From contig JAFTAU010000038.1 in the NCBI GenBank assembly GCA_017455435.1, positions 2,284 to 66,283 of the forward strand: a stretch of DNA of 64,000 nt. Direction: 5' to 3'. The first letter of the stretch is position 1. Every line of letters begins with the position of its first letter. Source of the DNA: Lachnospiraceae bacterium (GTDB taxonomy: Bacteria > Bacillota > Clostridia > Lachnospirales > Lachnospiraceae). A program made the translations under genes and the position numbers. Shown piece after piece: positions 43,697 through 64,000 of the stretch. Below the pieces are notes generated by a model that was given only the letters and a program-made list of their open reading frames with translations, ran no database searches and was not told where the DNA came from.

Positions 43697-43706
43697 TATA
43701 TATTAC

Positions 43707-43735: not shown

Positions 43736-43820
43736 CTTATAAAAAACACGGGTCAAATAATAGGAGAGCTTCTTCTATTATTTTTCCCGTTTAAAAAGGA
43801 AGTTTTTACGGGAGGCGGAT

Positions 43821-44693: not shown

Positions 44694-44705
44694 GGAGGCC
44701 CCGTT

Positions 44706-45824: not shown

Positions 45825-46582
45825 TGTCGTTTGTAGAGATAAACAATATCAGCATTTCCTTCGGAGGACTCCGCGCGGTTGACGATTTTTATCTGCGCCA
45901 GGAAAAAGGCGAGCTCTACGGCCTGATCGGCCCGAACGGAGCCGGAAAGACCACGGTCTTTAACCTGCTCACCGGCGTTTACAAGCCCGATCGCGGCACT
46001 TTTTTCCTTGACGGTGAAAACATGACCGGCAAAAGCACGATAAAGCTCAACCAGTCCGGCATCGCCAGAACCTTCCAGAACATCAGGCTGTTTGGCAATT
46101 TGAGCGTACTTGACAACGTCAAAATCGGCCTTCACAACAACTACAGATACTCCGCTTTTGACGGCATTGCCCGCCTGCCGAAATACTTCAAAACAGAAAA
46201 AGCAATGAACGAAAAGGCAGAGGAAATACTGGAGCTCTTTGAGCTTTACGGGGACAAAGACATTCTTTCGTCCAATCTCCCCTACGGAAAACAGCGCAGG
46301 CTGGAGATAGCCAGAGCGCTTGCCACGGATCCCAAATACCTGCTTCTGGATGAGCCCGCCGCCGGCATGAACCCCAACGAAACCGCGGAGCTTATGGATA
46401 TGATCCGCTTTGTTCGGGATCATTTCGGCATGACGATTCTGCTCATCGAGCACGATATGAAGCTGGTGGCCGGCATCTGCGAAAAGGTTTCCGTTCTCAA
46501 TTTCGGACAGCTTCTTGCGCAGGGCAAGACCTCCGAGGTACTGAAGGATCCAGAGGTCATAAAGGCCTATCTGGGACAATAA
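45824..46582 (+). CDS. livG: Branched-chain amino acid ABC ATPase (LivG type)
   Basis: Start at ATG 45824 overlaps the livM stop. Walker A GPNGAGKTT, signature LPYGKQRRLEIARAL, Walker B LLLDEPAAG. Confidence 0.9.
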   Translation: MSFVEINNISISFGGLRAVDDFYLRQEKGELYGLIGPNGAGKTTVFNLLTGVYKPDRGTFFLDGENMTGKSTIKLNQSGIARTFQNIRLFGNLSVLDNVKIGLHNNYRYSAFDGIARLPKYFKTEKAMNEKAEEILELFELYGDKDILSSNLPYGKQRRLEIARALATDPKYLLLDEPAAGMNPNETAELMDMIRFVRDHFGMTILLIEHDMKLVAGICEKVSVLNFGQLLAQGKTSEVLKDPEVIKAYLGQ

Positions 46583-46592
46583 GGGGGGCGAT

Positions 46593-47306
46593 ATGGCATT
46601 ACTTGAAATCAAAGATATGGAAGTGTCCTATGGCTTTATCCGTGCAATAAAGGGCATTTCATTCTCAGTAGAAAAGGGCGAAATCATAGCGCTCATCGGC
46701 GCGAACGGCGCCGGCAAGACCACCACGCTGCACGCACTTTCCGGCATCATCCCCATCGCCGGCGGAAGCATTTCCTTTGACGGCAAAGACCTCGCAAAGG
46801 TTCCCGCTCACGAAAGAGTGGCAATGGGCATCGCCCAGGTTCCGGAGGGCAGAAGAGTATTCCAGCAGCTTACGGTTTACAAAAATCTCATGCTGGGCGC
46901 CTATGCCCGCAAAAACCAGGATGAGATAGCCGCTGACCTGGAAAACGTATTCGAGAGGTTCCCCAGACTAAAGGAGCGCAGAAACCAGATTGCCGGCACT
47001 CTTTCCGGCGGCGAACAGCAGATGCTGGCCATGGGCAGGGCTCTTATGTCAAAACCCGCCATTATGCTGCTCGACGAGCCCTCGATGGGATTATCACCTA
47101 TTCTCGTCTCGGAAATATTTGATATAATAAAAAAGATAAATGAGAGCGGCACCACCGTTCTGCTCGTTGAACAAAACGCCAAAAAAGCTCTTTCGATTGC
47201 GGACAGGGCATACGTTCTGGAAACCGGAAGCATTATTCTGTCCGGAAAGGCAAACGCGCTCATGAATGATGATTCTGTGCGCAAAGCTTACCTCGGTGAA
47301 TCATAA
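46593..47306 (+). CDS. livF: Branched-chain amino acid ABC ATPase (LivF type)
   Basis: Walker A GANGAGKTT, signature LSGGEQQMLA, Walker B LLDEPS. Confidence 0.9.
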   Translation: MALLEIKDMEVSYGFIRAIKGISFSVEKGEIIALIGANGAGKTTTLHALSGIIPIAGGSISFDGKDLAKVPAHERVAMGIAQVPEGRRVFQQLTVYKNLMLGAYARKNQDEIAADLENVFERFPRLKERRNQIAGTLSGGEQQMLAMGRALMSKPAIMLLDEPSMGLSPILVSEIFDIIKKINESGTTVLLVEQNAKKALSIADRAYVLETGSIILSGKANALMNDDSVRKAYLGES

Positions 47307-49302: not shown

Positions 49303-50292
49303 ATGGATAATTATGGAGAAATTGTTATTTACCAGACTGAGGATGGTTTTTCAAAAATTGAAGTCAATTTAAAAAATGAAACAGTATGGCTGTCGATTGA
49401 TCAGATGGCTGAACTGTTTCAGCGGGATAGAAGTGTTATTGGAAAGCATGTACGTAATATATTTAAAGAGGGTGAACTGAAAAAAGATTCAGTATGGGCA
49501 AAAATTGCCTACACTGCCGCCGATGGAAAAATATATGACGTAGATTTTTATAATTTGGATGTTATTATTTCCGTGGGCTATAGGGTTAAATCCTTTCGTG
49601 GCACACAATTTCGAATTTGGGCAAATTCGGTACTTAGGGAATACATAATCAAGGGATTTACAATTGACGACGAGCGCCTGAAGGGAAATGCCGGAGGAAA
49701 TTATTGGAAGGAACTTCTTGATCGAATCCGTGATATCCGTTCATCGGACAAGGTGCTTTATCGTCAGGTGTTAGATTTATATGCAACAAGCGTGGATTAT
49801 AATCCGAAGAGCGAAGAATCCATTCAGTTTTTTAAAATTGTACAAAACAAGCTCCATTATGCTGCCCATGGACATACTGCGGCAGAAGTGATTTATGAAC
49901 GTGCTGATGCGGAAAAGCCATTTATGGGATTGACATCTTTTTCTGGCGAGCTGCCTGCTCTTAAAGATATCGGAGTTGCAAAAAACTACTTGAAAGAAGA
50001 TGAACTAAAGGTTTTAAACAATCTTGTTTCCGGCTATTTTGATTTAGCTGAAATATCTGCCATAGAGCATAAACCGATGTATATGAGTGACTACGTGACA
50101 CAGCTGGACTCAATTCTTACTTCGGGAAACAGAAAACTTCTTACCGATGCAGGAAGTATAAGCCATGATCAAGCCATGAAGAAGGCAAAGGATGAATACA
50201 GAAAATATCAGGAGATAACGCTGTCTCCTGTTGAAGAAGAGTATCTAAAGAGTATTAAAGAAGTGGAAAAAGAGGCCAAAAAGAAAAACTGA
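49303..50292 (+). CDS. rhuM: RhuM-family protein (virulence/defence-island-associated, function unknown)
   Basis: N-terminus IVIYQTEDG..K.EV.L..ETVWL...QMAELFQ.DR.VI.KH..NIFKEGEL, then YNLDVIISVGYRVKS.RGTQFRIWA. Visibly AT-rich compared with its neighbours. Confidence 0.85.
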   Translation: MDNYGEIVIYQTEDGFSKIEVNLKNETVWLSIDQMAELFQRDRSVIGKHVRNIFKEGELKKDSVWAKIAYTAADGKIYDVDFYNLDVIISVGYRVKSFRGTQFRIWANSVLREYIIKGFTIDDERLKGNAGGNYWKELLDRIRDIRSSDKVLYRQVLDLYATSVDYNPKSEESIQFFKIVQNKLHYAAHGHTAAEVIYERADAEKPFMGLTSFSGELPALKDIGVAKNYLKEDELKVLNNLVSGYFDLAEISAIEHKPMYMSDYVTQLDSILTSGNRKLLTDAGSISHDQAMKKAKDEYRKYQEITLSPVEEEYLKSIKEVEKEAKKKN

Positions 50293-50330: not shown

Positions 50331-50372
50331 AAAACAAGGCTGTGAGATTCAAAACTCACAGCCTTGATTTTA
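50331..50372. terminator. Bidirectional terminator hairpin between rhuM (+) and the disrupted ggt (-)
   Basis: Perfect 12-bp stem CAAGGCTGTGAG-ATTCAAAA-CTCACAGCCTTG, flanked by AAAA and ATTTTA. Confidence 0.7.
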
Positions 50373-50394: not shown

Positions 50395-52239
50395 TTAATA
50401 CGCCAGGGCTTTGCCGCTTCTTCTCGGGTCGGCGCCGCCCCTGACGGTGCCGTCGCCGTTGAGCGCTATGGCCTGGACGCCGCCGAAATAATTGTCATAG
50501 GCGGCCTTGTCAACGAGGGTATATCCCATATCTTCGAGAGCTTTCATGGCGCTTTCGCTCAGGGGATAAACCGAATCTTCGGTAGTCCTCTCGTAGTGCA
50601 GCTCTGTTTCGCTGTCCGCCCACACCCTGGTGGTATTGATGGCTTCCTGTACGTCCATATCAAAATCTATCATGCGCTCTATCACCTGGGCCACCACGGA
50701 GAATATTCTGGTGCCGCCCGGCGTTCCTACGGTGAGGAACGGCTCATTGTCGGGAGTCAGAACCACGGTGGGAGTGATGCAGGAAAGAGGACGGGCACCG
50801 GGCTTTGCGCAGTTTACGGACTCCGGATCCAGACTGAAATCGTACATTTCGTTATTGAGAATGAATCCGTATCCGGGGACGGCTATCTTGCTGCCGTAAA
50901 AATCGCCGATGGTCTGCGTGCAGGTGACCATATTTCCGTCCTTGTCAATGATTGAATATGAAGTGGTGGAGCCATGTTCAAAGGCTGCCGGGTCCGCCGC
51001 GGTGTACTTTCCGTTTCCGGCGTCAATGCCGTCAAATCTCTGCTTGGCGTATTCCTTGGAAGTCAGCCCGTCAAGGACGCTTTGCTCCACATTCTCGTAC
51101 ATATACTCGGCTCTGTCGGCGAAAGCGATCTTTGTAGCTTCCGCGATGGCGTGAATATATTCGGGGCTGTTTATCTCCATGGTCGCAAGGTCATAGTTTT
51201 CCAGAATATTGAGGATCTCAATGAGGTGCGTGCCGCCCGAGGATGAGGGCGGAAGAGAATAAACCTTGTAATCGCGGTAAGTGGAAGAGAGAGGCGTGCG
51301 GTGTTCGACTTTATATGAGGAAAAGTCTTCCTTTGTGATGTGCCCGCCGTAGCCGTTTACCGATCCCACTATCGCGTCCGCGATCTCGCCGCTGTAAAAG
51401 ACCTCCGGCCCCTGCTCGGCGATAAGTCTGTAAGTTTTTGCCAGGTCAGGATTTGTGATGACCTCGCCCGTTTCGTATGCCCATCCGTCGTTCAGATAAT
51501 ATTCTGAAAGCTCCTTCATCGCGGATATCTGGGTGTATTCCTCGTTGGAGGCTTCTTCCATCATGGGCATGCACAGATAGCCTTCCTCAGCGTACTTTAT
51601 TCCGTCCGCCATCAGCATTGCTCTGGTGAAATTGCCAGAGCCGTAACTGTTCAGAGCCTCTTCGAGCCCCGCGATCTCTCCGGGCACGGCCACGGCCAGC
51701 CCGCCGAGACGGTTCAGTCTGGAATAAGCTCCCGTCAGGGTAGCGCCCTCTTCCGTGGTATAGTACATGATGTTTCCGTCAGCGTCGAGCCACTGCCTCG
51801 CGTCGGTGGCGGCGGGCGCCGTTTCACGGAAGTCCAGCATAATTACCTCTCCCGTATCGGCCTTGTAGATGGTCATATAGCCGCCTCCGCCGATGCCTGA
51901 GGTGTAGGGCTCCACAACGCCGAGAGTGTACGAAACCGCGACAGCCGCGTCCACCGCGTTTCCGCCGGATTACAAAACCTCGAGGCCGGCCTTTGAAGCG
52001 TACCAGCTCGAAGATGCCACGGCCGCCTCCTTTCCGGTGGCGTCTCTGTCGGTCAGGATGACCTTCCCGTCCGAGTCATAGGGAACCCAGACGGCGTTTT
52101 CGTCTTCGGTTTCCTTTTCGCCCGTGCTTTCCGCCTCGGAAGTCGGGGCGTTTGTCGTCTCGTCGGAGTTTCCTCCGCAGCCGATGGCGGAGAACACCAT
52201 AGCCAGCGCCAAAAGCAAAGAAACAAATCTGATTTTCAT
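50395..52239 (-). pseudogene. ggt: Gamma-glutamyltransferase paralogue (lipoprotein) interrupted by one in-frame TAA
   Basis: Track ORFs 51970..52284 and 50395..51954 are in the same frame. Read-through translation gives ...ASKAGLEVL*SGGNAVDAAVAVSYTLGVVEP..., with the stop (51970-51972) aligned to the Gln of LDILQAGGNAIDAAVA in the intact paralogue. Lipobox SAIGC follows the ATG at 52239. Confidence 0.75.
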
Positions 52240-52516
52240 AATCATCATTCCTTTCAGTTTAATAATTCCTCTCTGTAAGAACAATTATTCCCTTCCATTA
52301 TATTTCACCGAAAATGAAAAAACAAATACAATCATTGTCAAAAAAATGCCAATCGCCACAACGAAAAAATCCGAAGTTTTTGTATGACAACACTTCAGTT
52401 TTTTAATGATTTAGCATAATGATATTCATTTTAAAATGTTGCAAACAAAAGGAATTGTATTGTATAATAATTAAACAATTCTATGTTCGTTTTTATGTGA
52501 AAATACAGGAGATAAA

Positions 52517-54412
52517 ATGAAAATAATAACCAGAATTCTCAGCTTGTTTCTCGTTCTTTCCATGCTTCTTTCCGCCGCTGCCTGCGGAGGCGGTGACGAA
52601 GGCGCCACCACGTCCGCTCAGTCGCAGGAATCCGAAAGCGCGGGTGAATCCACAGAGGTCGCTCCCGCCGTGGAAGGCGACGAATTCGGAAACGCCGCTG
52701 TCGGAAAAAACGGCGCGGTCTCCAGCTACAACGAGATTTCCTCTCAGATAGGTCTTGATATTCTTCAGGCGGGCGGAAACGCCATCGACGCGGCGGTCGC
52801 CACTGCTCTCGCGGTAGGCGTCGTAGAGCCTCACCACAGCGGCATCGGCGGTTCGGGCCTCATGACCATTTATCTCGCTGAAGAAGACAGATACACCACT
52901 ATCGAGTATCTCGAAAACATTCCCGGAAACGTAGAGTCGGACTACTACCTCAAAAACCGCAACATCGAGACTCCCAGAGCCGCCGGCGTGCCCGGACAGG
53001 TGGCGGGTCTCGCTATGGCCCTCGAAAAATACGGCACCATGAGCTGGCACGACATTCTCCAGCCCATCATAAAGCTCTGCCGTGAAGGCTTCCCGATTGA
53101 CGAGGTCGCTGCCGGCGCTATGGCGGACGGCTATGAGAAGTTCAGCAAAGAAGGAAAAGAATACCTCTTTGAGCTCTTTACCGACGACGGCTTCCCCTAT
53201 GCCGAGGGCGATATCTTCAAGAACGAAGACCTCGGGAACACATTTGAGACTCTTGCGGAAAAAGGCTGGCAGGATTTCTACACCGGCTCCATCGCCGAGA
53301 AAATCTCAGCGGATTTCAAGGCCAACGATGCAGCAATGTCCATGGAGGATCTGGCCAATTATTACGCCGCCGAGAGAGAACCCATCGTTACCAATTACTA
53401 CGGCTACGACGTGGTCACGGTTGCCAATCCCTCCGTCGGAGGAACGCTCCTCATCGGCGCGCTCAATATCATGGAGCAGCTCGGAATAAAAGACATCGAG
53501 CAGGGCACTGCCGACTACTGGAAGGTATTCAACGAATCCGTCCGTCTCGCCACGAACCCCGCATATACCTATTCGGGCGACCCGGCGTTTTACAACATGC
53601 CTTCCGAGACTCTCTGCTCAAAAGAATACGCCGCGGACAGAGCAAAGCTCTACAATCCCAAGGCCGCTCTTGACCCGCTTCCCGACGCGGACCTCGAGTA
53701 TTCCAAAAATGAAGTTCCTTCACTCACGGGAAAAGCCATCGCCGTCACTCCCACAAAGAACCCCCTTGTGTCCAATATTCCCGTCGTGGGCGAAACAGTC
53801 AGCGGCACTTCACAGCCCGACACCATAGACCAGGGCGGAAACACCACCCATATCGCAGTCATTGACGCGCAGGGCAATATCGTTTCCACCACAAACACAG
53901 TAGGCCTTTCATGGGGCTGCTACCACGCCACACCCGGCCTCGGCTTTATTTACAACACTCACCTCAACAACGTTTCGTGGACCACTGAATCCAGCCCGGA
54001 TTACTTTGCCGACGCAGGAAAGAGAGTACGTTCCACCATGTCGCCCACCATCGTTGTAAAGGACGGACAGCCCATCATGGCGGTCGGTTCTCCCGGCTCC
54101 ACGGTTATCCCGCCCGTTATCGCGAATATCATAAACAATGTTCTGCTTTATGATATGAACATTCAGCAGGCCATCAACGCTCCCAGAGCGCTCGTCATCG
54201 ACAGACCTTACGTTGATATGTCGGGAGAGCAGGGACGAATGGACAAAAAGACCGTCAGACTGCTCGAGGTATTCGGATATGTATTCAAAAATACCATTTC
54301 CGATTATGACGCCGTCTGCGGAGGAGTAGCCGCCATCACAATCGACAAGGAATCCGGTACGATAACGGCCGGAGGAGACCCCCGTCGCGATTACAAGGCC
54401 CTTGCCTATTAA
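52517..54412 (+). CDS. ggt: Gamma-glutamyltransferase-family protein (lipoprotein, intact)
   Basis: Lipobox SAAAC. Motif GGNAIDAAVA....GVVEPH.SGIGG, and an autoprocessing-site region GGNTTHIAVID..GN.VS.T.T. Confidence 0.9.
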   Translation: MKIITRILSLFLVLSMLLSAAACGGGDEGATTSAQSQESESAGESTEVAPAVEGDEFGNAAVGKNGAVSSYNEISSQIGLDILQAGGNAIDAAVATALAVGVVEPHHSGIGGSGLMTIYLAEEDRYTTIEYLENIPGNVESDYYLKNRNIETPRAAGVPGQVAGLAMALEKYGTMSWHDILQPIIKLCREGFPIDEVAAGAMADGYEKFSKEGKEYLFELFTDDGFPYAEGDIFKNEDLGNTFETLAEKGWQDFYTGSIAEKISADFKANDAAMSMEDLANYYAAEREPIVTNYYGYDVVTVANPSVGGTLLIGALNIMEQLGIKDIEQGTADYWKVFNESVRLATNPAYTYSGDPAFYNMPSETLCSKEYAADRAKLYNPKAALDPLPDADLEYSKNEVPSLTGKAIAVTPTKNPLVSNIPVVGETVSGTSQPDTIDQGGNTTHIAVIDAQGNIVSTTNTVGLSWGCYHATPGLGFIYNTHLNNVSWTTESSPDYFADAGKRVRSTMSPTIVVKDGQPIMAVGSPGSTVIPPVIANIINNVLLYDMNIQQAINAPRALVIDRPYVDMSGEQGRMDKKTVRLLEVFGYVFKNTISDYDAVCGGVAAITIDKESGTITAGGDPRRDYKALAY

Positions 54413-54460
54413 TTTAAAAAAATTTTTTTGATAATATTATTATCATCAGGAGGAAAGATT

Positions 54461-55093
54461 ATGAAAAAGCTTTTAGCAGTTCTTCTTGCTGCGATTATGG
54501 TTCTCGGAATGGCCGCTTGCGGCGATACGGCTGAAACCACCACCGCGGCTCCCGACACCCAGGCCACAGATGACACCACTAAGGCTGCGGACGACACCAC
54601 TGCCGAAGCCGCTCAGTACACGACAAAGATCGTTGCTCCGGCTGTCATCACCACTATCGGACAGGCTGACATCGACGTTGGAAAACAGGTTCTCAAAAAA
54701 GCCGGCGTTGAATTCACCGAAGACGACAAACTTGCTGCCGACGCGGTCGGCAACTACGGCACCATCTTTATGGTTATCGGAGCTTCCAAAAAAGGCCTTG
54801 GCGCTGCCGGCATCAGTGTTGAAGATGAAGTAGCCCGTGCAAACGCCGTTATCGACGCTGCAAAGGCTGCCGGAAAGCAGATTATCGCCATGCATCTCGG
54901 AGGTGAAGACCGTCGCGGCGGACAGTCCGATCAGATTATCGACGCGGTTATTGTAAAGGCTGACTTTGTCGTAGTAGCCGGCACCGGAAACGCCGACGGT
55001 CATTTCACTCAGACCCTGTCCGGCATCGGAATCCCGATCACCGTTGTTGACAACACCAAAGCGGCTGTTGACGTTATAGCTGCGCTTCTGTAA
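54461..55093 (+). CDS. Uncharacterised lipoprotein with a Thr/Ala/Asp-rich linker and an alpha/beta domain; candidate solute-binding partner of the downstream permease
   Basis: AGGAGGAAAG RBS and ATG at 54461, lipobox GMAAC, low-complexity linker ETTTAAPDTQATDDTTKAADDTTAEAA. No family recognised. Confidence 0.6.
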   Translation: MKKLLAVLLAAIMVLGMAACGDTAETTTAAPDTQATDDTTKAADDTTAEAAQYTTKIVAPAVITTIGQADIDVGKQVLKKAGVEFTEDDKLAADAVGNYGTIFMVIGASKKGLGAAGISVEDEVARANAVIDAAKAAGKQIIAMHLGGEDRRGGQSDQIIDAVIVKADFVVVAGTGNADGHFTQTLSGIGIPITVVDNTKAAVDVIAALL

Positions 55094-55107
55094 TTACCAC
55101 CGTACTG

Positions 55108-55148
55108 ACGGCTCCGGTGTTTAGCTATACCGGAGCCGTAGTTTGTTT
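55108..55148 (+). promoter_or_regulatory. Perfect 11-bp hairpin plus T-rich tail between the lipoprotein and permease genes (partial terminator or attenuator)
   Basis: ACGGCTCCGGT-10 nt-ACCGGAGCCGT followed by AGTTTGTTT. Same placement as the hairpin after the liv binding-protein gene. Confidence 0.55.
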
Positions 55149-55169
55149 AAAGAACAAGGAGGAACTGTT

Positions 55170-56570
55170 TTGGATCAGGAACTGATTATCTTATTGGTAA
55201 TGATAGGGACTTTCCTGCTCAGCAATTTTTTGCTCCATTTCCCCGTCAGTCTCGGTATGGCTCTTTCCGCCGTACTCGGCGCCGTTGTTTACGGCATTTG
55301 CGGCGGAGACATTTCTGAGCTCGGAAGACATCTGTTTGAAGGAACGTTTACATATTTGGACACCGTTCTGATCATCGCGATGGCAATGATCTTCATGACG
55401 TTTATCCAGGAGTCGGGCACAATGGGCGCTCTGAACAACGCCATAGTAACGCGTTTCTACAAAAAGCCCGTCATTATGCTTATCCTCTTGATGATTATCG
55501 TCATGTTCCCCGGTATGATTACCGGTTCGTCAACGGCGGGCGTTCTTGCCGCGGGTTCAATCGTCGCGCCTATTCTTATTCTGATAGGTGTTCCTAAGGA
55601 TAAGACCGGCGCGGTTATCGCGGTGGGAGCCATCCTCGGTATGGCGGCACCGCCCGTCAACATCCCCGCGCTGCTTATAGCGGGCGGCGTCGATATGCCT
55701 TTCTCGGGCTTTGACGTACCGCTGCTTCTCATCACGCTCATTCTCGGTATATTCACAGTGCTTTTTATCTGTATGAAGTATTGCCGGAATATCAATATCG
55801 AAGAATTAAAGCCCCATCTTGATTCTGAGACAGGAAAGAAATACGGCTTCAAAGTTTACATTCCCGTTATCGTTCTGGCGCTCATTCTGATCATCAGAAT
55901 GGTTCCCAGCATTCTTTCCATTTTTGGCGCGACCGGAGGCTTTGTAGACTGGTTCACGCAGTTCGCCAGCAAGATAGCGGCCATAGCGATGCCGCTCACC
56001 TTCCTTATCTGCGCGCTGCTTGCCATCATCCCCGGCTTCGGCAAAAAGTTCAACATTATCAAATCCTGCAAGAACGCGATCAACACCACTATTCCGGTTC
56101 TCGGAAAGCTGATGGGCGTTGGAATGTTCATTCAGATTCTTACTTTGACCGGAGCCAGAGGCTGGATCGTTCAGGCTTGCTTAAAGCTTGCCTCGCTCGG
56201 CGGAGCGCAGGAGACGTTTGCCATCGGCACCGTACTTCTGCTTCTCGCCATAGCCATTGTCTGCCCGGCGTTCGGCGCGGTTTCTTCTTACGGATCGGCG
56301 ACGGTTCTCGGCGTTCCTTTCCTTATCGTTCTGATGGACGTAAAGTTCCCGGCCTCGTCTGAGATAATAATGGCGTGCGCGCTTTCCACCATCGTCTGCT
56401 GCGGAGACCTTATGCCACCCACCGCCCTGTCCGGAAACTACGCGGCGGAGCTGGTAGGTGAAAAATACTCAAAGGTTCTGAAACACGTTGTGGTTCCCGT
56501 GGTCGTAAGCATAGTATTCTGCCTTGCCGTCCTGCTGCTGGCGGAACCGCTCAAATTCCTGGCGCGTTAA
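55170..56570 (+). CDS. Ion-transporter-superfamily permease resembling the TRAP large subunit DctM
   Basis: Probable TTG start at 55170, 8 nt after AAGGAGG. Polytopic ~466-aa protein. The segment GMITGSSTAGVLAAGSIVAPIL...G.....GAVIAVGAILGMAAPP parallels the DctM pattern (GS..A......G.I..P.M...G......G.I...G.LG...PPS). Confidence 0.55.
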   Translation: MDQELIILLVMIGTFLLSNFLLHFPVSLGMALSAVLGAVVYGICGGDISELGRHLFEGTFTYLDTVLIIAMAMIFMTFIQESGTMGALNNAIVTRFYKKPVIMLILLMIIVMFPGMITGSSTAGVLAAGSIVAPILILIGVPKDKTGAVIAVGAILGMAAPPVNIPALLIAGGVDMPFSGFDVPLLLITLILGIFTVLFICMKYCRNINIEELKPHLDSETGKKYGFKVYIPVIVLALILIIRMVPSILSIFGATGGFVDWFTQFASKIAAIAMPLTFLICALLAIIPGFGKKFNIIKSCKNAINTTIPVLGKLMGVGMFIQILTLTGARGWIVQACLKLASLGGAQETFAIGTVLLLLAIAIVCPAFGAVSSYGSATVLGVPFLIVLMDVKFPASSEIIMACALSTIVCCGDLMPPTALSGNYAAELVGEKYSKVLKHVVVPVVVSIVFCLAVLLLAEPLKFLAR

Positions 56571-56582
56571 GGAGGTAATGAC

Positions 56583-56747
56583 ATGATATTCGGAATCAGT
56601 ATTCTTACATGGATTTATCTTTTAATCATTGTTTTTTTACTTGTATTCATTATCTGGAATATGATTACGGAAAAAGACGTTCTGCGTCAGATCGACGCGG
56701 CCCTTGTCATCATTCCGCTGTTGCTTCGGCTGTTCCTGGTGAAGTAA
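56583..56747 (+). CDS. Unlisted 54-aa two-TM membrane peptide
   Basis: TAAGGAGG RBS 6 nt upstream of the ATG at 56583. Translation is MIFGISILTWIYLLIIVFLLVFIIWNMITEKDVLRQIDAALVIIPLLLRLFLVK, with TAA at 56745-56747. It is tightly packed between the permease and the next gene and is too short for the 60-aa ORF track. Confidence 0.6.
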   Translation: MIFGISILTWIYLLIIVFLLVFIIWNMITEKDVLRQIDAALVIIPLLLRLFLVK

Positions 56748-56760
56748 GGAGGAAAAGGAC

Positions 56761-58179
56761 ATGACATTGGAAGTTAAGACAAAAACCCCCGTTAATTATA
56801 TTACAGCAGCAGTTCTTCTGATACTGTGCTGCGTTATGTTTTTCGTCCTGAAGGGTCAGTTTGAAACCATGAGCGAGCCGGAGCTTGTCTACTACGGAAA
56901 AAACTCCAGCGTAAAGGCTATTCATTGGCTTTCGGAGTGGAATCCCCGCCTGAAGGAAACCCGCGGAGGCGCCGGAGATACGCTCGTTTATGAGCTTCGC
57001 GGCGAAGAAGAGGGCGATACCATAATCATTTTCGGCGGAGTTCACGCTAACGAGCCCTCCGGCTCCGTAGCCGCCATATACATGGTTGAGAATCTTCATC
57101 CAAAGGCCGGCACCGTCTATATCCTCACGCATACCAACGCCGCGGGATATACCTGCACGGACCCCCAGGAAGCTTCTCCCATGTTCTATACCGTTGATAC
57201 CGGAGCCGGCGAAAGACAGTTCCGCTTTGGCTCGCGCGTATCAAACCCCATCTATCAGTGGCCGGATCCCGATATCTATGTTCACACCTCCGGACAAAAG
57301 CTGGCCGGCTCAGAGACCAGAAATCTGAACCGCTGCTACCCCGGCATAGAAGACGGCACCATCACGGAGCAGGTAGCCTACGCCCTTACTGAAATGGTAA
57401 AGGATCTGGACGCGGCCGTCACCATCGACCTGCACGAGGCCTCTCCCGAATACAAGACTATCAACACCACGGTTTTCCATTCGAGAGCCAATTCCATCAC
57501 CTCGGCCCGCGACTGGTACATCCCCGAAGACCTCGAGGACGCGGCTCACATGGGAGCGGAAGTCTCGCCTGAGAATTTCCGCGGCCTGTCGCACATCGAG
57601 CTCGGAACATGGACCGACACGCTGGCCATGCTGATGGAGACGTCCAATCCCTCTCAGGGACGCGAACACGGAAAGACCGGAACTGACCTTGTTGTAAACG
57701 GAATAGACAAGTTCTATCTGCGCAACAACCAGTCCGTGGGAATTCAGGACAAGAGATACGGCATCGAGGTCGATACCGGAGAGTTTGTCGATGAAGACAC
57801 CTTCGTAGCCGCGAATGATTCCTCGGCGGAAGAGATGACAGCTCTCGGCGCGCGTCCTCTTTCCATGCGCGTCGCCAGACACGTAATAGCGACGCTGGCT
57901 TATGCTCAGAGCTATACCGATTCTATCGGAACCGCACTTGAAGACGCTGCCGCGGCAGCCACCGAAGAAGACAGGCTCGCGATTTACGAAGAGGTCGGAA
58001 TCGGAAAATCCTCTCTTGACGGCAGTATTATCGCCGAAAGAAGAACCGGTATAATCGACCTGGGAGAACTGCCTTCGTACAGTGATCTCTGCGCCAATCT
58101 TTACAAATACCTCGCGCCTTCGGACGAGGTCGAGACCAGCGCGGACGTATTCGCGGGTACTTCTTCACTGATTAAATAA
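56761..58179 (+). CDS. Succinylglutamate desuccinylase/aspartoacylase (AstE/AspA, M14-like zinc hydrolase) family protein, N-terminally membrane-anchored
   Basis: TM anchor, then zinc-site motif IIIFGGVHANEPSG (H-x-x-E). 472 aa. TAAGGAGG RBS. Confidence 0.65.
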   Translation: MTLEVKTKTPVNYITAAVLLILCCVMFFVLKGQFETMSEPELVYYGKNSSVKAIHWLSEWNPRLKETRGGAGDTLVYELRGEEEGDTIIIFGGVHANEPSGSVAAIYMVENLHPKAGTVYILTHTNAAGYTCTDPQEASPMFYTVDTGAGERQFRFGSRVSNPIYQWPDPDIYVHTSGQKLAGSETRNLNRCYPGIEDGTITEQVAYALTEMVKDLDAAVTIDLHEASPEYKTINTTVFHSRANSITSARDWYIPEDLEDAAHMGAEVSPENFRGLSHIELGTWTDTLAMLMETSNPSQGREHGKTGTDLVVNGIDKFYLRNNQSVGIQDKRYGIEVDTGEFVDEDTFVAANDSSAEEMTALGARPLSMRVARHVIATLAYAQSYTDSIGTALEDAAAAATEEDRLAIYEEVGIGKSSLDGSIIAERRTGIIDLGELPSYSDLCANLYKYLAPSDEVETSADVFAGTSSLIK

Positions 58180-58191
58180 GGTGAATTATCT

Positions 58192-59121
58192 ATGAAACGT
58201 TTTACATTAATCATCATGACCGCCGCGCTCCTTTTTGCGGGGTGCGGCTCTTCGGGGGAGAGCACAGCGGGCGGGCAGTCCGCCGCGGAGCCTACGGATT
58301 TTTCGTACGCGCCTGTTACGGTTACCACGGGAACTACGGAATCCGCCGCCACCGATGAGGTCAGTCTCGAGGATCTGGCTATCGACCCGCCGTACTCCTT
58401 TAATCCCGACGAAATGCTGCCCTCGGACTTCGGCGATTATTTCAAGACGCAGTATAACAGCGTTACGAGCACATATAAGCTCCTCGCCGGCGACAGGTAC
58501 GAAAGTGAAGTCACAATGATTAAGAGCCCGGTCGACGGTCCATCGGTTTATGTGATTGCCGGAATACACGGAGACGAGGAAGCCGCGTGGCAGGCCGGAA
58601 AGCTTCTCAAAAAGATTTCCATAAAAGCCGGAACTCTCTATATCATTGCTCCCGCCAACAAATACGGCGCGGTATCACTTTCGCGCCTGATAGATTCAAA
58701 AGACCCTAACAGAGTCTGGCCGGGCGATAAAAACGGTAACGGAGCGGAAAAGGTTGCGGCCTCCATCTTCGCGGACGTAAAAGAAAAATCCCCGGATTTT
58801 GTTTTCGACCTGCATGAGGCGAGGATTATATCCGACGACAGAGACTTCCTCGGAAGTTCGCTGATCTACACGACGCTCGACGTATTCCCTGACGATTTGT
58901 TTATGGACATCATCGACGACGCTCAAAACGGTATTATCTGCAACCACAAACTAAACTCCTACTCGCCGGGACCTGCGGGCAGCGTAAATCGCACGATCAC
59001 CGAAAAGCTGGGAATCCCCACCTTTACCGTGGAAACCTTCAGAGGATATCAGATGGAGGACCGTATTCACGACCAGCTCGATATAGTAAACTGGGTACTG
59101 AAATTTTATGGCCTGGAATAA
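58192..59121 (+). CDS. AstE/AspA (M14-like zinc hydrolase) family lipoprotein
   Basis: Lipobox LFAGC. Motif VYVIAGIHGDEEAAW (H-x-x-E) and a downstream DLHE motif. 309 aa. Confidence 0.65.
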   Translation: MKRFTLIIMTAALLFAGCGSSGESTAGGQSAAEPTDFSYAPVTVTTGTTESAATDEVSLEDLAIDPPYSFNPDEMLPSDFGDYFKTQYNSVTSTYKLLAGDRYESEVTMIKSPVDGPSVYVIAGIHGDEEAAWQAGKLLKKISIKAGTLYIIAPANKYGAVSLSRLIDSKDPNRVWPGDKNGNGAEKVAASIFADVKEKSPDFVFDLHEARIISDDRDFLGSSLIYTTLDVFPDDLFMDIIDDAQNGIICNHKLNSYSPGPAGSVNRTITEKLGIPTFTVETFRGYQMEDRIHDQLDIVNWVLKFYGLE

Positions 59122-59124
59122 ACA

Positions 59125-60261
59125 GTGAAATATTTCATCATTATCAGCCTGATAATCATCATCGCGTGCCTGGCTGCCGAGGCAAAACTCGCGGCCGGGC
59201 ATCGCCGCGCTATAAAGCATGTTATTCACGTAAACGGAACCCGGGGCAAATCCGCGGTTTCGCGTCTGATTGCCGCTGGCTGCGCCGCCGGCGGTCTCAG
59301 AACATACTGCAAAACCACCGGCACCTTGCCGATGACTATTGACACAAACGGAAACGAAACCGAAATAAAACGTATCGGCAGAGCCAATATTTCCGAACAG
59401 ATAAAGATACTGAAAAAAGCGGCCGCGGACGGAGCCGAGGTTCTCGTGATAGAGTGTATGGCCGTAGACCCGGAATTGCAGCGCGTCTGCGAGAGAAAAA
59501 TCCTCCGCTCGGATATCGGCGTTATCACAAACGTACGAATAGACCACGTCGCGGAGATGGGAGAAACAATTCCCGAGGTATGCGAGGCTCTCTGCGAAAC
59601 TATTCCCGAAAACGGCATAGTTTTCACCGCGGACGAAAGGAGCTTTGACGCCATCAGAGAAAACGCCGGACCGCGGGGTAGCGAGGCGGTTCTCGTAAAT
59701 GAAACGCCGGAGGATACCCGGGAGTTCCTTTTCCCCGAAAATATCGCTCTGGCGCTGCGCGTCTGCGAATATCTCGGAATAGAGCGCCGGACTGCACTCG
59801 AAGGAATGAAAAAAGTCATTGCCGACCCCTATGAGGCAAAGAGGTATACGCTCCCGGGCGGGGCGGTTTTTGTCAACGCCATGTCGGCAAACGACCCGGA
59901 ATCCACGGGCATACTTCTTTCAAAATTCATAAACAAAAAATCTCCGGACGGGCGGCTGATTATCATTCAGAACAACAGGGCTGACAGAGCCTACCGCATA
60001 AAGCTGATGGCCGGGTTTGCAGCCGGAGCGGGAGCGGATGAGATATGGCAGCTCGGCTCCTATAGCGGGGCCGCCCGCAGGATTTTTGAAAAATCCGGTA
60101 TAAAAACAGAAAAGTTCAGACGCGCCGCGGAGCTGCCCCTCGCAAGGGTACGGTCGGGAGACCTGGTATTCGCCATCGGTAATATTGCCGATGAGGGAAT
60201 AAAGCTCATGAATCTGGTAGAGGGAAAGGAGGAAAGCCGAAAATGTACGGAGAAGTCATAA
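59125..60261 (+). CDS. pgsB: Poly-gamma-glutamate synthase, Mur-ligase-like subunit PgsB/CapB
   Basis: GTG start. N-terminal TM segment, then IHVNGTRGKSAV.RLI and ...NI.EQ.K......GA...V.ECMAV.PE.Q, closely paralleling Bacillus CapB (VNINGIRGKSTVTRL...NIGEQ...ECMAVNPDYQ). Confidence 0.85.
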   Translation: MKYFIIISLIIIIACLAAEAKLAAGHRRAIKHVIHVNGTRGKSAVSRLIAAGCAAGGLRTYCKTTGTLPMTIDTNGNETEIKRIGRANISEQIKILKKAAADGAEVLVIECMAVDPELQRVCERKILRSDIGVITNVRIDHVAEMGETIPEVCEALCETIPENGIVFTADERSFDAIRENAGPRGSEAVLVNETPEDTREFLFPENIALALRVCEYLGIERRTALEGMKKVIADPYEAKRYTLPGGAVFVNAMSANDPESTGILLSKFINKKSPDGRLIIIQNNRADRAYRIKLMAGFAAGAGADEIWQLGSYSGAARRIFEKSGIKTEKFRRAAELPLARVRSGDLVFAIGNIADEGIKLMNLVEGKEESRKCTEKS

Positions 60262-60671
60262 TAACAGGTATCATTGTCAGTATCGTTTTTTCGTATTTCA
60301 CGTCGCTTTCTCCTGCCGGGCTCATTGTACCCGGGTATATTGCGCTGAATATAGGCTCCCCGATCAAGATACTTTTGACCTTTGCCGTGGCTTTTATCAC
60401 GTTGGGCATATACAAGATTATTTCACGCTTTACCATTCTGTACGGGCAGAGACGTTTTGCCCTGTTGGTAATCATTTCAATCTGCGTAAGCTGGCTTGTG
60501 ACGCTGCTTCCATTGCCTGTCGCCAATGTCAGCGTGATTGGATACCTGATTCCCGGGATTATCGCAAAGGACTGCGAGAGGCAGGGAATACTCAAAACCG
60601 TCCTGTCGCTGGCGGCAGCGGCCGGAATTACTGTTCTGATTTGCCTGCTGCTGGGAGCCAAATTACTCTGA
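60243..60671 (+). CDS. pgsC: Poly-gamma-glutamate synthesis membrane protein PgsC/CapC
   Basis: 142-aa, 4-TM protein with motifs G.IVPGYIAL and GY.IPG.IA, as in CapC. AAGGAGG RBS. Overlaps the pgsB 3' end. Confidence 0.85.
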   Translation: MYGEVIITGIIVSIVFSYFTSLSPAGLIVPGYIALNIGSPIKILLTFAVAFITLGIYKIISRFTILYGQRRFALLVIISICVSWLVTLLPLPVANVSVIGYLIPGIIAKDCERQGILKTVLSLAAAAGITVLICLLLGAKLL

Positions 60672-61741
60672 TGGTAATCAAAAAACGGGAAAAAAGAATC
60701 CGGGTAATGCTGCTTTTGATGCTGCTCGTTACGGCGTCGGGGCTTTTGCTCGCTTATTTTACCTCGTCCGTGACTGAAAAGCCGCTGTATAATACGGCGG
60801 TAAACGCCGCCCGAAAAATGAGCGCCTGCATGGAAGAAATCGCGGCCGAAAAAGCGCGGCGCGGGATAGAAATTCCGCCGGAGGATATTTTTTCTACCGG
60901 TCTGATAGGAGAAGATTATAACGACATCACCACCACGAGCGGAGACCTCGCGGCAAAGCGCACGAGCGCGAATCCCGATATGGCGTCCATGATGGTCTTT
61001 ATGCTGGATGAAGCCGGCATAAAGGCCGGAGACACTGTCGGCTGCAATTTCTCCGGGTCGTTCCCGGCACTTAATATTGCCACTGTCTGCGCCTGCGATG
61101 CGATGGGAGTCAGGGTCGTTTATATCTGCGCCTGCGGCGCTTCTACATGGGGAGCAAACAATCCCGGTCTTTCATTTCCGGAAATGGCGGACGTTTTGTA
61201 CAAAAAAAACCTGATATCCGCTCCGCCGGTTCTGGTAACCCCGGGCGGAGGCAAGGACACCGGCAGCGGCCTTGATCCGGAGCTGTTTTCGGAGGTCTGG
61301 GAGAGGGCGGAGGCTCTCGGCTATCCCACGCTCACGGAAGAGGATTTTGAAAAAAACGTGCTTGCCAGAAAGGCGGTGCTGGACGCGTATGATATTGACT
61401 GTTTTGTCGCGGTGGGAGGGCACCTGGCGTCTCTCGGACGCGGAGATGTGGTCTATCTGCTGGGTCAGGGCATAATTCGAGAGGAAGTAGGTTTTACAAA
61501 TGAAAAAAGCGGACTGGTCGAAAGGTACTTAAATGGAGGCACTCCCACCATCCTTCTTCTCAATATCAAAAAGCTTGCGGCGGACTACGGACTGCCCTTT
61601 GATCCGGTAAAACAGGCAGAGGTCGGAACAGCCGGATTGTACTATGAAAAGACGTATAACAAGGCGGTTCTGATAACAGCCCCGGCGGCCTTTTTGTGCC
61701 TGCTTATTTTATTTAAAAAACCGCATAAAAAGAGCGAATAA
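60671..61741 (+). CDS. Third poly-gamma-glutamate system component, not PgsA-like; bitopic protein with a large extracytoplasmic domain
   Basis: ATG at 60671 overlaps the pgsC stop (translational coupling). TM segments at the N- and C-termini. Assigned by position only. It may correspond to the TIGRFAM 'poly-gamma-glutamate system protein' class found where PgsA is absent. Confidence 0.45.
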   Translation: MVIKKREKRIRVMLLLMLLVTASGLLLAYFTSSVTEKPLYNTAVNAARKMSACMEEIAAEKARRGIEIPPEDIFSTGLIGEDYNDITTTSGDLAAKRTSANPDMASMMVFMLDEAGIKAGDTVGCNFSGSFPALNIATVCACDAMGVRVVYICACGASTWGANNPGLSFPEMADVLYKKNLISAPPVLVTPGGGKDTGSGLDPELFSEVWERAEALGYPTLTEEDFEKNVLARKAVLDAYDIDCFVAVGGHLASLGRGDVVYLLGQGIIREEVGFTNEKSGLVERYLNGGTPTILLLNIKKLAADYGLPFDPVKQAEVGTAGLYYEKTYNKAVLITAPAAFLCLLILFKKPHKKSE

Positions 61742-61860: not shown

Positions 61861-64000
61861 ATGGCAGAACAAGAAAAGAATAAGAAAAAGAAAGGCTGGT
61901 TATTCCTGCTTCTCGGAATTATTCTGGCGGCAGGCGTTGCCACTGTCCTTGCTTTGACTCTGGGAAAAAACAATCCCGGTCCCGGCGGCCCGGGTGATGA
62001 CCTTCAGAGGTCAGCAGAGGAAATTGCTCTTGCCGAAAAGCTCGCGGCCGAGGGCAGCGACACCATCTCTATAGATCACGACATAGAGATAGTCGGTACG
62101 CTCGTCGTTTTCGGGGACAAGACCCTTACCGGAAACGGACGTATTATCTCAAAAGGCTCCGGAGAGTACGTCATCACTCTCGGCGAGGGGGCTGTGCTAA
62201 ACCTCGACGGCCCTTCTGTAGAGAGCGAAGAAGGCGGTGCCACGAACGGCATCTACGTTTCGGAGACCGCGTCATTTAATCTGCTTTCAGGCAGTGTCAG
62301 AAATCTGGTCGGACACGGCGTCCGCAATCTCGGCGCTGCCCGTATTCTGGGCGGAACGATTTCAGAAGTCGGTACAAACTGGCTCATGGTCGATTCCGGT
62401 TCTACAGTAGAGATGAAGGCCGGCACATTCTCTGATGCCGGAGAGGCCGGAGTTCTGATTGGCTCCAGCGCCACGTTCACATACGGCGGAGAAGCTGTTA
62501 TGGACGGCTCCGTAGACAACCTGGTCTACAACCTCGGAACCTTTACCGCCGATGGCGGAAAGTTCCTCGGAAATCTTGATTATGCACTTTACAACAACGG
62601 CATCATGGACATCAAAAACGTCGTCTTCGAAGAGTCCGAGATTCTCGGTCCGATTCACAACGGAGAGGACGGAGTCATGACCGTTTCGTCCGTCACCATG
62701 AAGGACAGCGAGACGGACTTTATTTTCAACGAAGGAGACCTGACCCTCACCGACGTAACATTCGGCAACTGCAACAACCAGGCCATTGAGTGCGCCTACG
62801 GCAATATCAGGATGCAAAACATCACTGCCGGAAAGATAGGCGGGAACTTCCTTCTCAGCCGCAAATCAAAGGCTGTCATCGAGAATCTTACCATAGAGAC
62901 CGTTGGCTCGGATATCGTTTACAACCGCGCCAGCGACCTTCAGTTAAAGACTCTCAGATGCGGCGATGTGGGCGGCAGCGCCTTCTTTAACGATTTCCTT
63001 ACTTCCAAATCCACTGCCGGAGCCGGTGACGTCACTATTGAGGACTTTGAAATAGGTCACGTCATGGTAAACGGCATCCGCTCAAATGGCGGAAAAGTTC
63101 TCTTAAAGGACGGCGTCTTTGATATCTGCGACGGACACGGCGCTTACGCCAAGGACGGCGAGTTTACATGCGACAGCGTCACCTTCAAGGGCTCGGCGGT
63201 AGGCAGAGCCGTCGTTCTGGTAGGCTACAACACCAACACCGAAACAGTGGCCGTCTTCCGCAACACCACCATTACCGGCGGCGCGAGAGGACTCCAAAAT
63301 CACGCTATAGTCACGTGGGAGTCCGGAACCATCTACGGCAACAAATCCTCCGGAAAAATCAATATCGGAGCCGGCGTCAAAAACTCCGGACAGTTCACCA
63401 TGCTGGGCGGAACCATCCGCGACAACCGCGCAAAATCCAGCGGCGGCGGCATTTACAATGAAGGAACTCTCATTGTAAAGGGCGGCACTATCAAAAACAA
63501 TTCATCCGAACAGTCCGGCGGCGGTATCAGAAACTCCGTCAAGGGTACGGTCAAAGTCTCCGGCGGATTGATTTACAACAACACCGCGAAGAGCTACGGC
63601 GGCGGCATTGCCAGCGCCGGAAGGCTCACCTTCTCCGGCGGCACGGTTTCTTACAATTCGTGCGCCAAGAGCGGCGGCGGTATCGCTATCACGGGCGACA
63701 CCACCGGAAAACAGAAGGGCGCGGGCGTCGGATATCTCACCGGCGGTACCGTAAAGAACAACAAATCCACCGCTTCGGGCGGCGGCGTATATCTCGGCTC
63801 ATCCGCTCAGTACGGCTCGCTGGAAGGCGTCAAGATTAAGAATAACAAGACCTCCGACAATACGTCCGGCGGCGGCGTCTCGTCCCTCAGCAAGCTCTAT
63901 ATCTACAAGGGTACCGTAATCACCGGCAACAAGTCCGGCACCTACGGCGGCGGTGTCTATAACAGCATCACCAAAGACGGCACAAAGCACGGCACTATGT
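61861..64000 (+). CDS. 5' part (>713 aa) of a large membrane-anchored right-handed beta-helix surface protein with Pmp-like GGG(I/V) repeats; continues beyond the window
   Basis: Not in the ORF track because no stop lies inside the window. I translated it by hand: ATG at 61861 after AGGAG, then MAEQEKNKKKKGWLFLLLGIILAAGVATVLAL (signal anchor), open to base 64000. At least seven S/Y-GGG-I/V motifs at ~25-aa spacing lie between ~63430 and 63960. Confidence 0.7.
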   Translation, partial: MAEQEKNKKKKGWLFLLLGIILAAGVATVLALTLGKNNPGPGGPGDDLQRSAEEIALAEKLAAEGSDTISIDHDIEIVGTLVVFGDKTLTGNGRIISKGSGEYVITLGEGAVLNLDGPSVESEEGGATNGIYVSETASFNLLSGSVRNLVGHGVRNLGAARILGGTISEVGTNWLMVDSGSTVEMKAGTFSDAGEAGVLIGSSATFTYGGEAVMDGSVDNLVYNLGTFTADGGKFLGNLDYALYNNGIMDIKNVVFEESEILGPIHNGEDGVMTVSSVTMKDSETDFIFNEGDLTLTDVTFGNCNNQAIECAYGNIRMQNITAGKIGGNFLLSRKSKAVIENLTIETVGSDIVYNRASDLQLKTLRCGDVGGSAFFNDFLTSKSTAGAGDVTIEDFEIGHVMVNGIRSNGGKVLLKDGVFDICDGHGAYAKDGEFTCDSVTFKGSAVGRAVVLVGYNTNTETVAVFRNTTITGGARGLQNHAIVTWESGTIYGNKSSGKINIGAGVKNSGQFTMLGGTIRDNRAKSSGGGIYNEGTLIVKGGTIKNNSSEQSGGGIRNSVKGTVKVSGGLIYNNTAKSYGGGIASAGRLTFSGGTVSYNSCAKSGGGIAITGDTTGKQKGAGVGYLTGGTVKNNKSTASGGGVYLGSSAQYGSLEGVKIKNNKTSDNTSGGGVSSLSKLYIYKGTVITGNKSGTYGGGVYNSITKDGTKHGTM

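Follow-up and report, generated by a model that had tools for sequence, protein, structure and literature searches.

A conserved gene island joins candidate poly-gamma-glutamate synthesis to tethered, putative gamma-glutamyl hydrolases and a TRAP-like permease in a Lachnospiraceae bacterium and other anaerobes

Why should genes for making a polymer lie side by side with genes for cutting it and for taking up the products? The question is raised by an island at positions 50395-61741 of a 64,000-nt stretch of contig JAFTAU010000038.1 from a Lachnospiraceae bacterium (assembly GCA_017455435.1; this whole stretch is called the window below). Here PgsB and PgsC, components of the poly-gamma-glutamate (PGA) synthase, are encoded together with gamma-glutamyltransferases (GGTs), two AstE/AspA-type zinc amidohydrolases (AstE1 and AstE2), a DUF6305 lipoprotein and a permease. 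The biology of PGA rests almost entirely on Bacillus. The reading that we favour, at a probability of about 0.6, is that the island is a two-module turnover system, in which PGA is made, extruded, cut to glutamate at the cell surface and re-imported. It is drawn from the family scores of the proteins, the linkage of the two gene sets as seen from either side, the persistence of this linkage through rearrangement and over a wide taxonomic range, gene fusions, conserved catalytic residues, a GGT without a lid loop, the replacement of the permease by another importer in one locus, and two-component pairs dedicated to related loci.

Profile scans and the list of open reading frames (ORFs) give ten genes in the island, or eleven ORFs if a ggt gene split by a stop codon is counted twice (Table 1). 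The initial annotation, which had counted eleven genes, was correct in their identities and, exactly or nearly, in their coordinates, as well as in the claim that all extracytoplasmic components are lipid- or membrane-anchored. We distinguish module A, comprised of GGT, DUF6305, the permease with its small membrane peptide, AstE1 and AstE2, and module B, comprised of PgsB, PgsC and a protein of the TIGR04332 family.

The linkage of the modules was assessed from both sides. Relatives of the permease are encoded in 456 GTDB species representatives; the 80 best loci were taken with 10-kb flanks and searched with the window proteins by tblastn, and the count covers the 37 whose flanks reach at least 6 kb on either side. 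DUF6305 and AstE1 are encoded in all 37 of them, GGT in 36, AstE2 in 34, and PgsB, PgsC and TIGR04332 in 20; moreover, a second permease-peptide-AstE1 triad is present in 23. With TIGR04332 as the query, 504 relatives were obtained in metagenome contigs; 18 loci have flanks of at least 8 kb on either side, and all of these encode DUF6305, AstE1 and the permease, GGT being found in 17 and AstE2 in 16. Nearly all permease-seeded loci have the core order DUF6305-permease-peptide-AstE1, usually followed by AstE2, with GGT alongside; the synthase genes may be downstream, upstream or divergent relative to module A. As gene order and orientation vary while the genes stay together, their linkage argues for selection on it and against a chance arrangement.

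The initial annotation had been ready to give up a functional connection if these genes did not co-occur in other genomes. They do, in Clostridia, Fusobacteriota, Spirochaetota and Bipolaricaulota: the gene set is recurrent in hundreds of gut, rumen and sediment anaerobes, and the carriers include Lachnospiraceae, Oscillospiraceae, Tissierellaceae, Fusobacterium, Cetobacterium, Sphaerochaetaceae and Candidatus Bipolaricaulis. In particular, a Fusobacterium metagenome-assembled genome (MAG; locus L078) carries the full island. Three loci from bins assigned to Phocaeicola, Selenomonadaceae and Coriobacteriaceae (L020, L023, L035) match Sphaerochaetaceae loci of the same study in gene order and identity, and the taxonomy of these bins is probably wrong.

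The genes had initially been described as fused into one locus, which is true of their linkage, but they form two separable modules and not a single unit. Module A has no pgsBC within 10 kb in 17 of the 37 permease-seeded loci, including those of Sphaerochaetaceae and Clostridium transplantifaecale (L077). Among the sampled loci, module B always occurs together with module A (18 of 18 TIGR04332-seeded loci with full flanks). Of the cultured carriers, Clostridium pascui, Lutispora saccharofermentans, Paratissierella segnis and Cetobacterium somerae possess both modules, while in C. symbiosum, C. transplantifaecale and Yanshouia hominis module A is found with no pgsBC in the stretch covered. There are also fusions within single proteins, TIGR04332 being fused to an AstE-type domain in four clusters at 50% identity, to a histidine kinase (HisKA/HATPase_c) in one and to PgsC in one. 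In fusion P0322, a second hydrophobic segment comes after the C-terminal helix of TIGR04332, an arrangement expected to leave the AstE domain on the extracellular side. About 46 of about 160 related loci, some of them without pgsBC, include a sensor kinase and response regulator of their own; no dedicated two-component system is present in the window, where a generic pair (28-31% identical) is the only one found.

As for module B itself, PgsB and PgsC belong to the PGA synthase families at the equivalog level. The third gene, initially annotated as a third PGA component, belongs to the family named 'poly-gamma-glutamate system protein' and adjoins pgsB and pgsC in the window and in all sampled loci, so that this part of the claim holds, but its product is not PgsA. 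No island protein matches the PGA_cap family of PgsA/CapA in Pfam or NCBIfam. The AlphaFold2 (AF2) model of the TIGR04332 protein consists of an ectodomain between N- and C-terminal transmembrane helices (predicted local distance difference test, pLDDT, 91.9; predicted template modelling score, pTM, 0.89). As this confident model has no PDB neighbour above a template modelling (TM) score of 0.25 in the fold search, the protein does not appear to be a PgsA homologue, and a PgsA-like metallophosphatase fold was rejected; it has no Pfam match either. Because PgsA is missing, the synthase is, judged by its gene content, of a PgsA-less three-gene type and not the canonical Bacillus pgsBCA(E) operon.

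Synthases of this type have been seen before. Like the island, Fusobacterium nucleatum and the Francisella capBCA locus combine PgsB and PgsC homologues with a third membrane protein unrelated to PgsA. Three-gene clusters are reportedly described in a 2009 abstract by Candela and colleagues, according to which the PGA of F. nucleatum is said to be secreted and not anchored. F. nucleatum is reported to make PGA with homologous genes (PMC3815933), and Francisella capA is annotated under the TIGR04332 family name (PMC5362203). The Francisella genes are needed for virulence (PMC5362203, PMC4688374), the locus being without a demonstrated PGA product (PMC4688374). The trio of the island sits among GGT, DUF6305, permease and AstE-type genes, a setting that we met in no paper, and its host, unlike the other two, is a monoderm member of the Clostridia.

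In Bacillus, synthesis and degradation are also coupled, as the GGT-family gene capD lies inside capBCADE of B. anthracis and pgdS follows directly after pgsBCAE of B. subtilis. Thus, the contrast initially drawn with Bacillus, whose degradative genes had been called only loosely associated, was overstated: both there and in the island the ATP-dependent PgsB/PgsC are linked to known or putative polymer-cutting enzymes. The difference is in the partners. The island has no PgsA/CapA, no NlpC/P60-type PgdS and no evident PgsE, and has TIGR04332, two AstE/AspA-type enzymes, DUF6305 and a permease of its own, with all outer components tethered.

The enzymes of module A are compatible with a gamma-glutamyl polymer as their substrate. 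The intact GGT is a lipoprotein (signal ending in LLSAAAC) of the family TIGR00066, PF01019 and MEROPS T03, and its catalytic TTH motif falls at residue 1 of the small subunit when aligned with solved structures. Its closest solved relatives are the GGTs of B. licheniformis, E. coli and B. subtilis (263-200 bits), and the large chain of CapD scores lower (128 bits). The small subunit is gapped at the lid loop in comparison with the GGT of Helicobacter pylori, while no such gaps are seen against the lid-less enzyme of B. licheniformis, so that the GGT of the island, as the Bacillus one, has no lid loop. Lid-less Bacillus GGTs accept PGA as a substrate and degrade it, and Bacillus GGT serves as an exo-hydrolase of PGA during starvation. 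The divergent copy, ggt(-), had been called disrupted, and indeed a single in-frame TAA codon at 51967-51969 (reading GLEVL*SGGNAVDAAV) inactivates it. In the relatives L171 and L001 this codon is AAA (Lys) and the gene is intact (614 and 610 amino acids, respectively), so the disruption is probably a single nonsense change specific to this strain, or possibly a sequencing error.

Both AstE-type proteins exceed the PF24827 cut-off of 25 bits. Residues conserved at 99-100% are H95, E98, R187-N188, R191, H225-E226 and E293 in AstE1 (132 sequences), and H126, E129, R165, N173-R174, H208-E209, E281 and R291 in AstE2 (83 sequences). Thus, both families retain the zinc ligands (HxxE...H) together with the N-R carboxylate clamp, the catalytic Glu and numerous arginines that do not vary. 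AstE1 contains a large insertion and additional invariant arginines and is remote from the solved structures 2qj8 and 3cdx, while the AstE2 family profile matches 3cdx, 2qj8, 6twl, 4wcm and 4axv, which are AstE/AspA, Csd4/Peptidase_M99 and MpaA structures. The PDB matches (E 1e-4 to 1e-14) cover the N-terminal half of the domain alone. Close similarity to characterised AstE, aspartoacylase or DoeB was not found, the scores with the DoeB profile TIGR02994 being 22-23 bits against a cut-off of 402.7.

The zinc site, the N-R clamp and the catalytic Glu are common to the island hydrolases and MpaA, Csd4/Pgp1, AstE, aspartoacylase and DoeB. Enzymes of this kind hydrolyse amides in which an acyl or gamma-glutamyl group is bound through its carbonyl to the alpha-amine of an acidic amino acid; in particular, MpaA and Csd4 cleave gamma-D-glutamyl bonds, both acting on peptidoglycan stem peptides. 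Unlike them, the island hydrolases are extracytoplasmic, anchored and remote in sequence. Cleavage of PGA by AstE-type enzymes is chemically plausible by analogy, since N-(gamma-glutamyl)-glutamate resembles N-succinyl-glutamate, and since PghP provides a precedent. PghP/PghL (from phage PhiNIT1; YndL and YoqZ in B. subtilis) are zinc-dependent PGA hydrolases with a carboxypeptidase-A-like fold that cleave the gamma-glutamyl bonds of PGA (PMC4497714). They exemplify M14-clan chemistry on this polymer, while the island enzymes belong to the AstE/AspA family PF24827.

The permease belongs to the ion-transporter superfamily and is a distant relative of DctM. Its score with the DctM family PF06808 is above the gathering score of 23.8, but a true DctM in L077 reaches 357 bits, and the score with the NCBIfam model TRAP_fused is 17 bits (cut-off 321). 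The family has more than 3000 homologues, named 'TRAP transporter large permease subunit' by NCBI. As in tripartite ATP-independent periplasmic (TRAP) transporters (DctPQM, TAXI), a DctM-like permease is accompanied in the island by a small membrane partner and an extracytoplasmic lipoprotein. However, a peptide of about 50 amino acids stands in place of DctQ, no island protein matches the DctQ, DctP or TAXI families in Pfam and NCBIfam scans, and DUF6305 is single-domain and not two-lobed. Homologues of the 54-aa peptide, with 35-89% identity, are found by tblastn downstream of the permease in many other loci; they are duplicated along with it and stay with it where pgsBC are missing. As regards a PgsE/CapE-like small peptide, the 54-aa peptide of the island follows the permease and does not lie within the synthase genes.

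The DUF6305 lipoprotein is predicted to consist of a low-complexity linker and a single Rossmann-like alpha/beta domain (AF2 pLDDT 85, above 93 in the domain). The loop GxSxKGLGxxG, H145, RR151-152 and D179 are invariant in 82 sequences. The fold search and the PDB profile search yielded generic Rossmann-like matches (FtsZ N-domain, ThiM, SGNH esterases) with TM at most 0.42, with no close PDB neighbour and no significant sequence match to solved structures. Homology between DUF6305 and TIGR04332 was rejected (hhalign probability 13%). On the model, the conserved residues fit either an anion-binding or a hydrolase site, for the latter of which Ser109, His145 and Asp179 would be a conceivable triad.

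The lipoprotein and the permease had initially been taken for a pair, but the role of DUF6305 as the solute-binding protein of the permease is weakened by locus L174. Here AstE, GGT, DUF6305 and AstE genes adjoin an ATP-binding cassette (ABC) importer of the LIV type (Peripla_BP_6, two BPD_transp_2, two ABC_tran), and there is no DctM-like permease. As this importer has a binding protein of its own, DUF6305 is probably not simply that of the permease. Judged from this transporter swap, amino-acid uptake appears to be the conserved logic of module A.

Taken together, the turnover system may work as follows. PgsB would ligate glutamate in the cytoplasm using ATP, and PgsC with the doubly anchored TIGR04332 ectodomain would pass the chain outside. 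Module A would act at the outer face of the membrane, with GGT taking gamma-glutamyl units off the amino end of the polymer, and the zinc enzymes attacking at the carboxyl end, where they would cut N-(gamma-glutamyl)-glutamate bonds, or else working on oligomers. DUF6305 may bind the polyanion or assist its processing, and the permease would bring in what is released, either glutamate or short gamma-glutamyl peptides. With both modules, a cell could thus lay down and reclaim an extracellular PGA layer or reserve, and a cell with module A alone could harvest PGA or gamma-glutamyl peptides from other producers. A similar mode of working is known for cyanophycin, which is also a polyamide reserve with an ATP-dependent ligase (CphA) and dedicated peptidases (CphB/CphE), and some non-producers of which carry the degradative genes alone; the two systems differ in polymer, enzyme families and cellular location.

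The strongest of the alternatives, which we nevertheless consider unlikely, is that module A is a general scavenger of gamma-glutamyl and N-acyl-glutamate compounds (glutathione, gamma-glutamyl peptides, folyl-polyglutamates, peptidoglycan fragments) and that next to pgsBC it mainly feeds glutamate into polymer synthesis and does not recycle the polymer. The loci with module A alone would be expected in this case, as would a GGT closer to general GGTs than to CapD and the possibility to replace the permease with a LIV-type amino-acid importer; many module A carriers are amino-acid or glutamate fermenters. However, a scavenger of this kind does not account for the presence of module A at every sampled TIGR04332-type synthase locus with full flanks. 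Repeated fusion of AstE-type domains to TIGR04332 is hard to explain by substrate supply alone, and two or three different surface-tethered, exo-acting enzymes point to a polymeric substrate.

A capsule-maturation role is less probable still. Here a CapD-like GGT would join PGA to peptidoglycan, the AstE-type carboxypeptidases would trim peptidoglycan stem peptides or set the length of PGA chains, and the permease would recover by-products. The position of capD within the anthrax cap operon, the CapD match of the window GGT, the similarity of the AstE2 family to Csd4/Peptidase_M99 and MpaA, and the TIGR04332-AstE fusions all agree with it, but the same gene set occurs in the diderm Fusobacteria and Spirochaetes and at loci without a synthase, the window GGT is more similar to hydrolytic GGTs, and the PGA of F. 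nucleatum is reportedly not anchored. Equally improbable is a product other than PGA, that is, a short gamma-glutamyl oligomer or a glutamylated envelope molecule edited by module A, which would suit the virulence role of the Francisella genes (capB and capC being not required for the capsule), the TIGR04332 fold without a solved relative and the histidine kinase fusion, hinting at ligand sensing, but is opposed by the equivalog-level scores of PgsB and PgsC and by the full island in Fusobacterium, F. nucleatum being a reported PGA producer (PMC3815933).

Several observations weigh against PGA turnover as the function of the island. It contains no glutamate racemase and no evident PgsE, and no island protein matches the PghP/PghL or PgdS (NlpC/P60) families in comparisons with Pfam and solved structures. 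Both AstE-type proteins are far from any characterised enzyme, and since the window GGT resembles general GGTs, it could act on glutathione or on other gamma-glutamyl peptides; the second ggt copy is a pseudogene in this strain. The Francisella capBCA genes are not involved in capsule production, their function being listed as unknown (PMC4688374). Finally, every member of this locus type is known from sequence alone, and each of the two neighbourhood samples is made up of the 80 best relatives of its query, so that more distant family members may behave differently.

Table 1. Features of the island, its surroundings and related loci; positions are those of the window unless preceded by the handle of another locus (L).
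Feature	Position	Strand	Evidence or remark
ggt(-), GGT lipoprotein gene, 614 codons in total	50395..52239	-	PF01019 E 6.6e-141, TIGR00066 435 bits
Divergent intergenic region, putative control region	52240..52516	.	between the two ggt genes
Predicted promoter-like site TTGCAA-18-TATAAT	52439-52468		ahead of ggt(+); consensus scan alone
ggt(+), intact GGT lipoprotein	52517..54412	+	TIGR00066 390 bits (cut-off 358)
DUF6305 lipoprotein	54461..55093	+	PF19823 E 1e-39
GC-rich hairpin, 13 bp, directly 3' of the DUF6305 stop	55108..55139	+	dG -27.5 kcal/mol, z -5.4
Permease, ion-transporter superfamily, distantly DctM-like, 466 aa	55170..56570	+	PF06808 34.1 bits
Hydrophobic membrane peptide, 54 aa	56583..56747	+	45-54-aa ORF directly downstream of the permease in inspected loci
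AstE1, AstE/AspA-type zinc amidohydrolase, N-terminal membrane anchor	56761..58179	+	PF24827 34 bits
AstE2, AstE/AspA-type zinc amidohydrolase, lipoprotein (lipobox LFAGC)	58192..59121	+	PF24827 48 bits
PgsB/CapB amide ligase, P-loop GTRGKS	59125..60261	+	TIGR04012 319.5 bits (cut-off 222.7); PF08245 E 2.6e-9
PgsC/CapC membrane component	60243..60671	+	TIGR04011 115.5 bits (cut-off 96.45); PF14102 E 5.5e-30
TIGR04332 'poly-gamma-glutamate system protein'	60671..61741	+	TIGR04332 322.2 bits (cut-off 100)
Post-DUF6305 hairpins in relatives	L171 ~4393-4424; L001 ~9940-9969; L004 ~9933-9966; L006 ~9935-9965		
Module A genes with LIV-type ABC importer	L174 5265-14793		
TIGR04332 fusion clusters	P0322, P0350, P0352, P0395, P0358, P0439		loci such as L170
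Sensor kinase/response regulator pairs	L074 16111-18139; L077 7152-8564; L084 5657-7559; L050 13701-15726; L170 3839-5859		
Generic two-component pair	36955-39201		
liv-type amino-acid ABC transporter, complete	42455-47306		
RhuM-family gene	49303-50292		PF13310 E 1e-104
Bidirectional terminator-like hairpin	50335-50366		
Start of very large repeat protein	61862-64000 (off the window end); L171 11146-16659		~1837 aa in L171
90-aa, CitE-like (HpcH_HpaI), CitF and class-I fumarase-like genes	L171 17705-21026		
Further conserved ORFs without significant Pfam match	L006 3148-4557, 16184-16456; L066 3396-4622; L035 4548-4853		

The layout of the genes bears on their expression. The gaps between consecutive plus-strand genes are 48, 76, 12, 13, 12 and 3 nt, followed by overlaps of 19 nt (pgsB and pgsC) and 1 nt, the likely ATG start of the TIGR04332 gene at 60671 overlapping the stop codon of pgsC. 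The permease ORF extends over 55143-56570, and its likely start is TTG at 55170, which is preceded by the ribosome-binding site AAGGAGG and is consistent with L171; if TTG at 55143 is the start instead, the gap after DUF6305 is 49 nt and not 76. This spacing agrees with the short gaps (3-50 bp) or overlaps that the initial annotation had reported and had seen as a sign of one or two transcripts. The latter can now be refined, as the plus-strand genes would be expressed as two or more units, parted by the hairpin after DUF6305. In each of the five loci examined, a hairpin of 13-15 bp lies directly 3' of the stop codon of DUF6305, though the sequences differ completely, and in L001 and L004 the hairpin is followed by a U-run. 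This suggests a conserved attenuator or terminator that parts ggt and DUF6305 from the permease and the genes downstream; because of this conserved hairpin, the genes on its two sides are likely expressed at different levels.

The nearest relatives are the Logan contigs L171, whose TIGR04332 protein is 96% identical to that of the window, and L001, as well as a goat-rumen Lachnospiraceae MAG (L010). The genes upstream of the island in the window are comEC, those of a liv-type amino-acid ABC transporter, one resembling cytidylate kinase, rpoD and one of the RhuM family. GC content varies little along the region (0.50-0.53), and so, given also the flanking comEC, liv-type ABC transporter and rpoD, the island is a chromosomal locus amid housekeeping genes. 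A recently acquired mobile island was rejected on the same grounds and because L001 has the island at the same rpoD-linked position, even though the RhuM-family gene is not found there; L171 has its downstream flank in common with the window.

Some neighbouring features may be mentioned in their own right. The complete liv-type transporter ends about 3 kb upstream of the island, with a similar arrangement in L001. The RhuM-family gene lies between rpoD and the island, in the place where L001 has a MatE efflux gene, and a bidirectional terminator-like hairpin is also present (Table 1). Downstream of the island, a gene running off the window end encodes a very large protein with a signal anchor, whose Gly/Asn/Thr-rich repeats suggest a beta-helix; it has no Pfam match and is kept directly downstream of the island in L171, L001 and L004. 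In L171, about 6.7 kb past the island, there is a cluster of a 90-aa gene and CitE-like, CitF and class-I fumarase-like genes, which could encode a citrate or citramalate lyase and a mesaconase, and so possibly glutamate fermentation; its counterpart falls beyond the end of the window. In related loci, a 408-aa family is encoded upstream of GGT (22 loci) and a family of about 100 amino acids after AstE2 (16 loci), and L006 has single ORFs of 469 and 90 amino acids, all without a significant Pfam match.

In our literature searches, we found no paper on the island as a unit or on DUF6305, and none joining AstE-type enzymes to pgsB, or PGA to TRAP transporters in gut bacteria. The suggestion that such a unit had not been described in Clostridia is thus in line with the literature found, though the system itself extends beyond Clostridia. 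The coupling of a synthase to a degradative enzyme is already known; the part for which we found no description is its conserved association with DUF6305, the permease and AstE-type enzymes. We tentatively suggest, at somewhat less than even odds, that this is a widespread and so far unrecognised system of PGA utilisation or recycling, with two new AstE-like families of PGA or gamma-glutamyl carboxypeptidases, DUF6305 as a new lipoprotein that binds a polyanion or is catalytic, a minimal TRAP-like permease with a subunit of about 50 amino acids and a context for TIGR04332.

The interest of the island is that it is widespread, involves several uncharacterised families and can be tested in cultured carriers. 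Its breadth is considerable, with 1482 clusters at 50% identity in the TIGR04332 family and the permease in the 456 species representatives mentioned above. If the proposed function is correct, four uncharacterised protein families would acquire testable functions, the TIGR04332/Francisella-CapA family would receive its first functional context, giving a handle on the long-unexplained virulence locus capBCA of Francisella, and new PGA-degrading enzymes may become available for biotechnology or capsule stripping. Synthesis and consumption of PGA would then be common in uncultured gut and rumen Clostridia, Fusobacteria and Spirochaetes. In gut, rumen and sediment communities PGA would commonly serve as a store of glutamate outside the cells that is open to all, where producers would carry both modules, and scavengers the degradative module alone.

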